Source: an uncultured delta proteobacterium
Lineage (GTDB): Bacteria; Desulfobacterota; Desulfobacteria; Desulfobacterales; UBA2156
Length of the DNA stretch: 64,000 nucleotides
Direction of reading: 5' to 3'
NCBI GenBank assembly: GCA_963736855.1
Contig: CAVTQK010000021.1
Span: 32,001-96,000, forward strand
Shown: positions 5,174 through 56,464 of the stretch, in pieces
Layout: each line of letters starts with the position of its first letter
Position numbering within the stretch: the first letter of the stretch is position 1
Made by a program: the position numbers and the translations under genes
Notes under the pieces: model-generated
Told to the model about the DNA's origin: nothing
Database searches by the model: none
The model's input: only the letters and a program-made list of their open reading frames with translations

Positions 5174-5438
5174 ACCTAAATTGATCGTTTTCAATTTGGC
5201 AAAAAAGAATTGTGTTTGAATATCCTTGTGTTGGAACGGAGTTGACCATTCCAATTGCCCACCCGTCGGGTGTACCATAAAAGGCATGCAGTGGAATTAT
5301 TTGCCAAATTGAAAACCCTTTGGGATTTCCGATTTCACCGCATCTGCTACGTTGCCGAAAGCTCGACGTACGAATTGTACGCCTTCGCTTCCGGACGCCT
5401 TGCATCTGCGGCAAATTCGAAAATCGCTCAATTTAAGT
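5174..5438 (-). mobile_element. ~265 bp structured MITE-like repeat, copy 1
   Basis: Inverted copy of 40656-40921 (about 13 differences by hand count); imperfect terminal IR ACCTAAATTGA/TCAATTTAAGT and internal IRs. Confidence 0.85.
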
Positions 5439-40655: not shown

Positions 40656-40921
40656 ACCTAAATTGAGCGATTTTCGAATTTGCCGCAGATGCAAGGCGTC
40701 CGGAAGCGAAGGCGTACAATTCGTACGTCGAGCTTTCGGCAACGTAGCAGATGCAGTGAAATCGGAAATCCCAAAGGGTTTTCAATTTGGCAAATAATTC
40801 CACCGCATGCAATTTATGGTACACTCGATGGGTGGGCAATTGGAAGGGTCAACTCCGTTCCAACAAAAAGATATTCAAACACAATTCTTTTTTTGCCGAA
40901 TTGAAAACGATCAGTTTAGGT
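40656..40921 (+). mobile_element. ~265 bp structured MITE-like repeat, copy 2
   Basis: Terminal IR ACCTAAATTGAGCG/CGATCAGTTTAGGT; near-identical inverted copy at 5174-5438. Confidence 0.85.
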
Positions 40922-46957: not shown

Positions 46958-47009
46958 GGCTGTGGGAGGTCAAACCAAGGCCCCCACCCTGAATGGTCAA
47001 AACGCAGCT

Positions 47010-47125
47010 TGACCGCAAGCTGTTATCCGACTTAAACCGCTGCGGCTGGGAAAGCCTGAAGGCATATTCCAGTTTGGCCTCAAGAAATTCAACGGCAGTA
47101 CCCGGCGCCGCCATCGGCAATCGGG
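47010..47125 (+). pseudogene. IS91-family transposase remnant
   Basis: DRKLLSDLNRCGWESLKAY..AVPGAAI; 52/64 identical to 48638-48701. Confidence 0.7.
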
Positions 47126-48562: not shown

Positions 48563-48634
48563 TGGTGGGGCAATCCAAATGTGAGGCTATCGAGCGGATG
48601 CGGTAACTATGAAGATCGATTCGAAAAAAATACA

Positions 48635-48972
48635 ATATGACCGCAAGCTGTTTTCCGAATTAAGCCACTGCGGGTGGGAAAGTGTGAAGTGCTATTTTAG
48701 TACACCTCCCGTGGCAGATGCAAAAAAGCCGGGATCGATGAAATCCTCCTCTGCATGCTCCAATCGGAGTTGACCGATGCTCAGTTCCGGAAAAACTGGT
48801 CGTGCCTGATCCAAAAGATTTACCCGGTTGAATTTCCCGAAAGGAACCCTATTCAACCGGGTGAATGAGGTCGATCTCCTGATCTGTCCCAAGTGCCGGG
48901 GAAAAATGCGGGTGTTTGAGTTTATTGAAGATCCGGATGCGTTTGAAAAAATACTCAGACACTTGAACTTAT
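48635..48972 (+). pseudogene. IS91-family transposase remnant (internally deleted, C-terminal part)
   Basis: YDRKLFSELSHCGWESVK, then RKNWSCLIQKIY / EVDLLICPKCRGKMRVFEFIEDPDAFEKILRHL. Confidence 0.78.
48819..48865. repeat. Short palindromic element inserted in the IS91 remnant
   Basis: TTTACCCGGTTGAAT...ATTCAACCGGGTGAA arms (one G-T pair) with an inner TTCC/GGAA hairpin. Confidence 0.75.
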
Positions 48973-55689: not shown

Positions 55690-55788
55690 GGAAAAATCCT
55701 TTATGATGCAGTTTGACCCAATTCTTTCGGATGCCGTTTCATAACGCAATCCGAAAGCTTAGGCAACCTCAAACTCCTGGGATAGTTG

Positions 55789-56050
55789 ACCCTGTTGTTG
55801 CAAAAGCCGAGGATGTCCCAGATCCAAGGCGTCCAAGGGCGAAGCCGTAGTATTTTACTGCGAGCCCTTGGCAACGAAGGAGATGGGGCATCTTCGGCTT
55901 TCCCTCCGGGTAAAAAACATGACAAATTTCTTCTTCGTTTTAGAAGTCACTAAAAGTCTATTCGCGAACCATGCCTAAACGTATTCAAATGCCCTGTTAT
56001 CATTCTTTTTTTCTACACCTTGTCATGTTTTTTTAATGCAACTGCAGGGT
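55789..56050 (+). mobile_element. ~262 bp structured repeat, divergent third member
   Basis: Terminal IR ACCCTGTTGTTGCA/TGCAACTGCAGGGT; shares the AGAT.CAAGGCGTCC...CGAAG.CGTA...CGAG...GGCAACG.AG.AGATG core, CCCnnnGGG linker and second arm with copies 1-2. Confidence 0.7.
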
Positions 56051-56078
56051 TGACACGAAACCGGATTCCCCTTATTGT
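56050..56078 (+). promoter_or_regulatory. Candidate sigma70 promoter
   Basis: TTGACA-17 nt-TATTGT upstream of the small Cys-rich gene and iorAB. Confidence 0.45.
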
Positions 56079-56257: not shown

Positions 56258-56464
56258 ATGAGCGAAAAGGTAACCTATATGTGTAAATCTTGTGGGGGAA
56301 AAAAAGAAGTCGACACCGCATCCGAAGGCGGTCCCGAATGCTGCAACACCCCCATGGAAAAAATGCCCCCTATGAATAGCTGTACGGTCTCAAGCACTGC
56401 CGAACACTCTCGGTTCGACGAAACGGATGAACCGTGCGACGATGGCCGGTCCGGCAAGATCTGA
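56258..56464 (+). CDS. Small desulforedoxin-like Cys-rich protein (68 aa)
   Basis: AAGGA RBS; YMCKSC-x15-CCNTPM plus an acidic tail with two more Cys and a His. Confidence 0.75.
   Translation: MSEKVTYMCKSCGGKKEVDTASEGGPECCNTPMEKMPPMNSCTVSSTAEHSRFDETDEPCDDGRSGKI

Follow-up and report, generated by a model that had tools for sequence, protein, structure and literature searches.

Three segments of a 64-kb window (the window being the whole stretch of DNA analyzed, 64,000 nucleotides from an uncultured delta proteobacterium) carry helices in the same order, and they raise the question of which molecule selection keeps folded and at which step it acts. The first-pass annotation had taken the segment under study for the third, divergent member of a structured repeat family, a candidate non-coding RNA or single-stranded DNA mobile element. 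Inspection of the sequence finds the helices and module order quoted there in all three segments. The elements exist, but their true limits are 55790-56049, 40657-40920 and 5175-5437, and the supposed common termini ACC...GGT take in, on either side, a single base of the target duplication. Moreover, the element at 55790..56049 has a family of its own (family B), with 10 full-length copies at 88-100% identity. The features are as follows.

55786..55789, + strand: TTGA, target duplication (4 bp) on the left side; present once at the empty site of relatives
55790..56049, + strand: family B MITE, the element under study; 260 bp, + being the folding strand
55790..55802, + strand: left terminal inverted repeat, IS1380 type; also the 5' strand of the closing stem
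55803..55901, + strand: arm A, the rod holding the conserved core; strand-specific covarying helices
55826..55876, + strand: core, consisting of the internal-loop motif and distal hairpin; the part common to other MITE families and, probably, ERIC
55826-55831 opposite 55872-55876, + strand: core internal-loop motif, inside arm A
55902..55910, + strand: CCC-nnn-GGG mini-hairpin at the predicted four-way junction; pairs kept in 43-44 of 45 elements
55911..56035, + strand: arm B, A/T-rich stem (55911-55925 with 56020-56035) round a variable loop
56037..56049, + strand: right terminal inverted repeat; with adjoining bases, identical at 18 of 20 positions to the right end of an IS1380 in a relative (L160)
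56050..56053, + strand: TTGA, right copy of the target duplication; begins the TTGACA-17-TATTGT promoter-like site
40657..40920, + strand: family A MITE, 264 bp; flanks TAAGA/TAATA
5175..5437, - strand: family A MITE, 263 bp; downstream of leuA

Ends, target duplications and the IS1380 connection

The element is almost certainly a non-autonomous MITE of the IS1380 type. Family B has 13-bp inverted ends (CCCTG...CAGGG), complementary at 11-12 of 14 terminal bases in the parsed full copies; no ORF of 100 aa or more lies over 55790..56049; and perfect 4-bp target duplications flank 8 of the 10 full copies (mismatched-pair control, 0.12). In the sister family A, with 9 full-length copies in the genome including those at 40657-40920 and 5175-5437, 3 of the 9 show perfect 5-bp duplications (control, 0.025); in both families each copy was counted once, although both strands are listed. 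Family C shares the core and lies outside the window (153 bp; 52 full copies in the genome under a strict pattern), and it shows direct repeats of 6 or 7 bp in 34 of the 52 copies (control, 0.05). Among relatives, 82 elements were parsed and 63 retained, the remaining 19 being excluded on account of length, weak ends or absence of the junction. In the retained set, end type predicts duplication length, with 4 bp in 24 of 36 elements and 5 bp in 18 of 27 and no cross-over, at rates inflated by an end picker that rewarded the presence of a duplication.

For the DNA of the family B element, matches occur in 18 of 40 relatives and in 11 of 300 genomes from the phylum, and none in the plasmid collection. 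Empty sites, which the first-pass annotation had proposed to look for, were found: in pairwise alignments, 3 of 5 orthologous loci in relatives read straight through the junction, lacking the element and showing one TTGACA, which is conserved in these three relatives, and the other two alignments end short of the junction. Because the insertion duplicated TTGA, the site TTGACA-17-TATTGT survives downstream of the element as a putative promoter, facing a small ORF and an indolepyruvate oxidoreductase alpha-like gene. The copy at 55790..56049 sits between divergent genes, upstream of this promoter-like site, and as a single insertion it is ordinary and probably near-neutral. The small ORF (56258-56464; 68 aa, cysteine-rich), immediately before the oxidoreductase gene, is conserved in relatives and has no NCBIfam or Pfam match. 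Elsewhere in the window, the family A copy at 40657..40920 starts 11 bp past an acyl-CoA dehydrogenase-like gene, and a 75-bp direct repeat (46999-47073 and 48627-48701, 77% identity) surrounds methyltransferase and hydrolase genes; the 25 codons of its first copy have no Pfam match, and the repeat resembles an IS91-type transposase fragment.

The IS1380 family includes ISEcp1 and ISPme1. One member was found in the element's own genome (C19:64735-66458, above the cut-off for PF13701 and NF033539, the latter at 266 bits), and its terminal bases are identical to those of family A at 16 of 16 positions. Family A thus has an intact cognate transposase in the same genome. Among 33 IS1380 loci examined, a script obtained the end pair for 12, two of which have family B ends with 4-bp duplications: the intact IS1380 L160 of a relative (473 aa, 235 bits) and L158, which is interrupted by a stop. 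Family A-type ends occur in the genome's own IS at C19 and in L167 and L174. Two genomes (G378 and G538) each contain an IS1380 together with core-bearing MITEs of matching end type, and a third IS1380 end type (L146) has core-bearing MITEs in G538 and a single one in the own genome; a lone MITE of this end type, with its core at G000 C6:7346-7418, has the same four-way architecture. No intact B-type transposase was detected in the own genome (a 25-contig assembly) or in 5 relatives searched with the L160-type protein, and no family-C-ended IS among 30 DUF772 loci. A 38-codon relic of a B-lineage transposase, 84% identical to L160, lies at G000 C9:155985-156098.

The divergence of the termini had been advanced as an argument against a MITE. 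This argument fails on the terminal inverted repeats of each family, the family-specific duplication lengths, the empty orthologous sites and the end matches to IS1380-family insertion sequences; the first-pass annotation had itself set its proposal against a possible match to the ends of a known IS, and such a match is what we find. Judging from ends and duplications, mobilization in trans by an IS1380 transposase is likely. We consider it very improbable that the repeats are a host non-coding RNA family or a single-stranded DNA element mobilized by an HUH nuclease. The strong covariation would be expected of such molecules, and the family indeed bears no recognized name, with no Rfam match at gathering score in the 64-kb window (best local E 0.097) or in 20 core-bearing or ERIC loci, where weak local matches are attributable to chance. 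The target duplications, empty orthologous sites and IS1380-matching inverted ends nevertheless speak against both, as do internally deleted copies that keep both ends. HUH elements, in the case of IS91 as described in the portion of PMC9330008 consulted, leave no direct repeats, and the duplications and inverted ends rule against an HUH or REP-type element.

The 3' strand of arm B continues the IS-like right end, and the element interior is not IS sequence: the two covariance models of the core described below detected none in IS loci that were intact or nearly so (R2 in three loci, R1 in four). Because IS1380 members are reported to take up adjacent DNA (PMC9330008, same portion), capture of the core module by IS1380-type elements is plausible.

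A predicted strand-specific fold

Selection very probably acts on the fold. One strand is predicted to form a four-way junction with a long arm holding an ERIC-like core, and the folding z of the element is -8.8 as RNA and -7.4 as DNA, with none of 200 shuffles equally stable. We aligned 45 of 49 representatives with less than 85% identity, excluding four with long insertions or deletions. In the structure drawn from this alignment, 91.4% of the cells are paired and 55 of the 68 pairs show two-sided changes. None of 500 shuffles scored as high and slid partners were 36-46% paired, in statistics that ignore relatedness; the top mutual-information pairs of the same alignment include the drawn pairs. 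The closing stem, arm A, mini-hairpin and arm B join without unpaired bases in 37 of the 45 elements, and the element at 55790..56049 itself has extra bases at the junction. One copy (L100) has lost the arm B loop and kept the junction, within a perfect 5-bp duplication.

The covariation is strand-specific. The ratio of G·T to A·C combinations is 99:8 in arm A (12:1 by column pair) and 31:3 and 26:2 in the core helices, with weak bias elsewhere (23:10 in the ends, 21:15 in arm B). The proposal that selection acts on a folded single strand is thereby supported by 45 divergent elements. The loop words called invariant, by contrast, are constant only in the pair that was compared and vary across these elements (AGAT in 24, AAGGCGT in 9, CGAAG in 12, CGAG in 16, CAACG in 17 and AGATG in 27). 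What these elements retain is the geometry of the internal loop, which comprises a G-C pair (43 of 45), a G opposite A (42 of 45), C·A or A·G (44 of 45) and then a covarying pair. Conserved wobble pairs occur at two positions of the structure, one being T·G (26 of the 45) and the other G·T (30 of the 45).

A pattern of this kind could in principle arise with no function at all, if template-switch repair of quasi-palindromes and recombination between repeats generated the covariation and the core were a passenger. We regard this as unlikely, even though several observations fit it: resident copies decay, some core-less copies have a left end that mirrors the right end, and a chimera joins a family A left end to a family C core. 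In this chimera (G000 C15:238344 onward) the family A left end is nested in a family C copy and joins its core via the motif common to both, an arrangement suggestive of recombination through the core. Repair, however, should be strand-symmetric and erase mismatches, whereas in arm A the asymmetry is strong and a non-canonical loop persists; this loop, together with the distal hairpin, furthermore recurs across phyla.

Mini-hairpin loops are GNA in 26 of 44 elements, with the middle base conserved in 28 and the first base in 29 of the 44, and in DNA a d(GNA) loop with a C-G closing pair has unusual stability according to the part of PMC3201870 available. We have downgraded this as an argument for DNA: descent from GAA explains the loops equally well, and further loops are often non-GNA. 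The core terminal loops are diverse, with no favored tetraloop, and neither IHF-site words (9 of 45 elements versus 9.3 shuffled) nor sigma-70 words (8 versus 6.7) are enriched in the arm B loop. Element lengths in relatives cluster at 206-209 and 253-260 bp despite the non-conserved loop sequence. Some MITEs have short insertions (about 20-60 bases) that look like hairpins and lie at fixed places, without obvious inverted ends, in arm A (L047, L048, L083), in the mini-hairpin (L060, L067, L107) and also in L094.

The core in other repeat families and its probable relation to ERIC

A covariance model built from the 45 cores of the IS1380-type lineage (R1) detects a family whose ends differ (74-82 bits) and also family C (about 25 bits); none of its 62 hits in the element's own genome is unrelated, and it misses ERIC altogether. 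An exact-pattern scan of species genomes gave at least 120 matches, of which the 80 listed were analyzed. Among these listed matches, the core-bearing records are titled as Bacteroidota, Lachnospiraceae, Beta- and Gammaproteobacteria, Streptomyces, spirochaetes, Chlorobium, Acidobacteriota, NC10 and Desulfobacterales; 61 of the 80 fold with z < -2, and beyond what the pattern demands 73 continue with A and 24 with AGATG. Several of the cross-phylum copies have ends resembling an IS5-family element (L303).

A second model (R2), built from 36 cores of the listed cross-phylum matches and partly circular in that an ERIC-minded pattern fixed 18 of its bases, scores the element at 32 bits, the 40657 copy at 38 bits and ERIC at up to 39.5 bits, against a best background of 12 bits. 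It matches 14 of 14 E. coli ERIC loci at the repeat, 6 of them with E <0.001. A matrix restricted to columns outside the pattern recovers the distal hairpin in 6 of 9 ERIC copies (shuffle p <=0.01) and gives 19.2 for the 40657 copy and only 2.7 for the element at 55790..56049. From these comparisons of sequence, a relation of the core to the center of ERIC is likely, and it would be an indirect one.

Among the listed matches, the spacing of the loop strands is bimodal, 38-41 nt in 26 of 73 and 55-60 nt in 40 of 73, in a scan that covered 38-66 nt, and the two classes differ by about one helical turn. The same short core is also carried by a rod-shaped family of about 105 bp with different ends (L103, L106, L110, L112 and, in G475, L325 and others). 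G475 holds at least 133 core hits, and the left flanks of the ~105-bp family there are alike, as if it targeted another repeat.

Probable selection at copying and comparison with known systems

Copies already resident in the genome behave differently from the families compared with one another. Their G·T to A·C ratio is 27:18 (p 0.23; variants unpolarized and counted once); the family B core has 0.34 variants per site versus 0.40 in the loop, and family C has 9 variants on 11 motif sites. Resident copies of two of the three families, B and C, thus decay almost neutrally; the family A core is protected (0.09 versus 0.34 variants per site, p 2e-5). Because changes between families respect the fold and changes in resident copies mostly do not, selection is likely to act when copies are made, on the founding of new ones. 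The core is an aid to movement and not a requirement, since core-less copies with the same ends exist: three clean ones with family B ends and one carrying an insertion, each with both ends kept. In addition, a 190-bp core-less family has family C-type ends (25 left ends, 6-bp duplications); copies lie at, e.g., C23:38486-38675 and C6:111189-111378, and this family is twice nested at the same place within the family B loop.

The explanation that we favor overall, at somewhat less than even probability, is an IS1380-type MITE whose fold aids propagation, probably as single-stranded DNA bound by a host protein. The IS1380 transposase would move the element in trans; replication or transposition would expose the folded strand as single-stranded DNA; and a widely conserved host protein would bind the fold during copying and raise the chance that the copy propagates. 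The spacing by a helical turn would fit a protein that reads two sites on one face. A fold of the DNA strand is favored because the decay of resident copies points to selection at the copying step and because no bias towards the transcribed strand is seen in the IS1380-type copies (sense to antisense 3:3 in the own genome and 8:11 in relatives, with crude ORF calls). No replication-strand bias of the copies was seen, which counts against this explanation, as do the core-less copies and the failure to find an intact B-type transposase in the own genome and the 5 relatives searched. Taken separately, the question of whether the folded molecule is DNA rather than RNA is evenly balanced, and the benefit falls, with fair probability, mainly on the element and not on the host.

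The chief competitor accepts the same MITE and lets the fold act as RNA in read-through transcripts, as a rod recognized by a nuclease or another protein that makes insertions tolerable or tunes the neighboring mRNA; we hold this possible, at a somewhat lower probability than propagation as DNA. The stems are wobble-rich and strand-specific, which fits RNA no less than DNA; family C copies are biased towards the sense orientation relative to flanking genes, at 27:11; and the cores of family A are protected, so that all three count against the DNA-copying reading. There are also precedents, insofar as the available parts of the sources go: nucleases are reported to target the RNAs of ERIC and Correia elements (PMC10969869, PMC2759123), RNase III cutting Correia transcripts and RNase E effects being described for ERIC (PMC10969869, PMC3184786). 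Against the RNA reading stand the absent sense bias of the IS1380-type copies, the near-neutral decay of family B and C copies, the position of the copy at 55790..56049 between divergent genes and upstream of a promoter-like site, and the diversity of the core terminal loops.

Returning to propagation as DNA, we tentatively suggest a broader, less probable generalization, namely that MITEs of unrelated transposases (IS1380 and IS5, both by end match, and also ERIC) have more than once acquired the same portable folded signal, specific to one strand, which a conserved host protein would read at two sites a helical turn apart and which would boost the copying of its carrier. If this is true, the center of ERIC gains a function, a cis-acting amplification signal shared across phyla is defined, and the IS1380 lineage mounts this portable signal on a gap-free four-way junction. 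ERIC has been known since about 1990, and the reviews, in the portions accessible, give its core no function. MITE interiors are usually treated as decayed filler, whereas this interior covaries strongly between divergent families and outlasts changes of transposase ends. The lineage is also a clean test system: it has a cognate transposase, variants that naturally lack the core or an arm, and numerous compensatory alleles.

The element resembles IS1380 MITEs in its CC...GG inverted ends, 4- or 5-bp A/T-rich duplications and lack of coding capacity, and differs in its interior, a conserved four-way fold that persists with three types of end. MITEs as such are known, and those with stable folds are a kind already described (PMC3184786, in part); what seems to be new is an IS1380-type MITE with a conserved, strand-specific, ERIC-like folded module. 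A full-text search of the literature outside subscription journals, bioRxiv supplements and ISfinder returned no IS1380 MITE with this fold and no MITE core common to several families. The multicopy Geobacter sequences of PMC2700814 gave no match to the core words in the searchable text, which included 19 Geobacter metallireducens supplements and in which alignments may be pictures. Rfam V_AS5 has no match in the own genome.

With ERIC (IRU, RU-1) of enterobacteria, the element core probably has in common the proximal loop and distal hairpin. ERIC is, however, a 127-bp single rod flanked by TA, according to the part of PMC2759123 at hand, whereas the element is a 260-bp four-way junction with CC...GG IS1380 ends, a TTGA duplication and a short-spacing core. 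The bcr1 repeat of the Bacillus cereus group, as the available part of PMC3184786 describes it, is mobile, has 5-bp direct repeats and shows compensatory changes in a cruciform-like fold. Likened to the element by this description, bcr1 is a precedent for a structure-conserved MITE and is described from one species group. The Correia or NEMIS repeats of Neisseria are likewise structured MITEs (PMC10969869, in part).

The ends of the Correia and NEMIS repeats differ from those of the element, and their target is TA.
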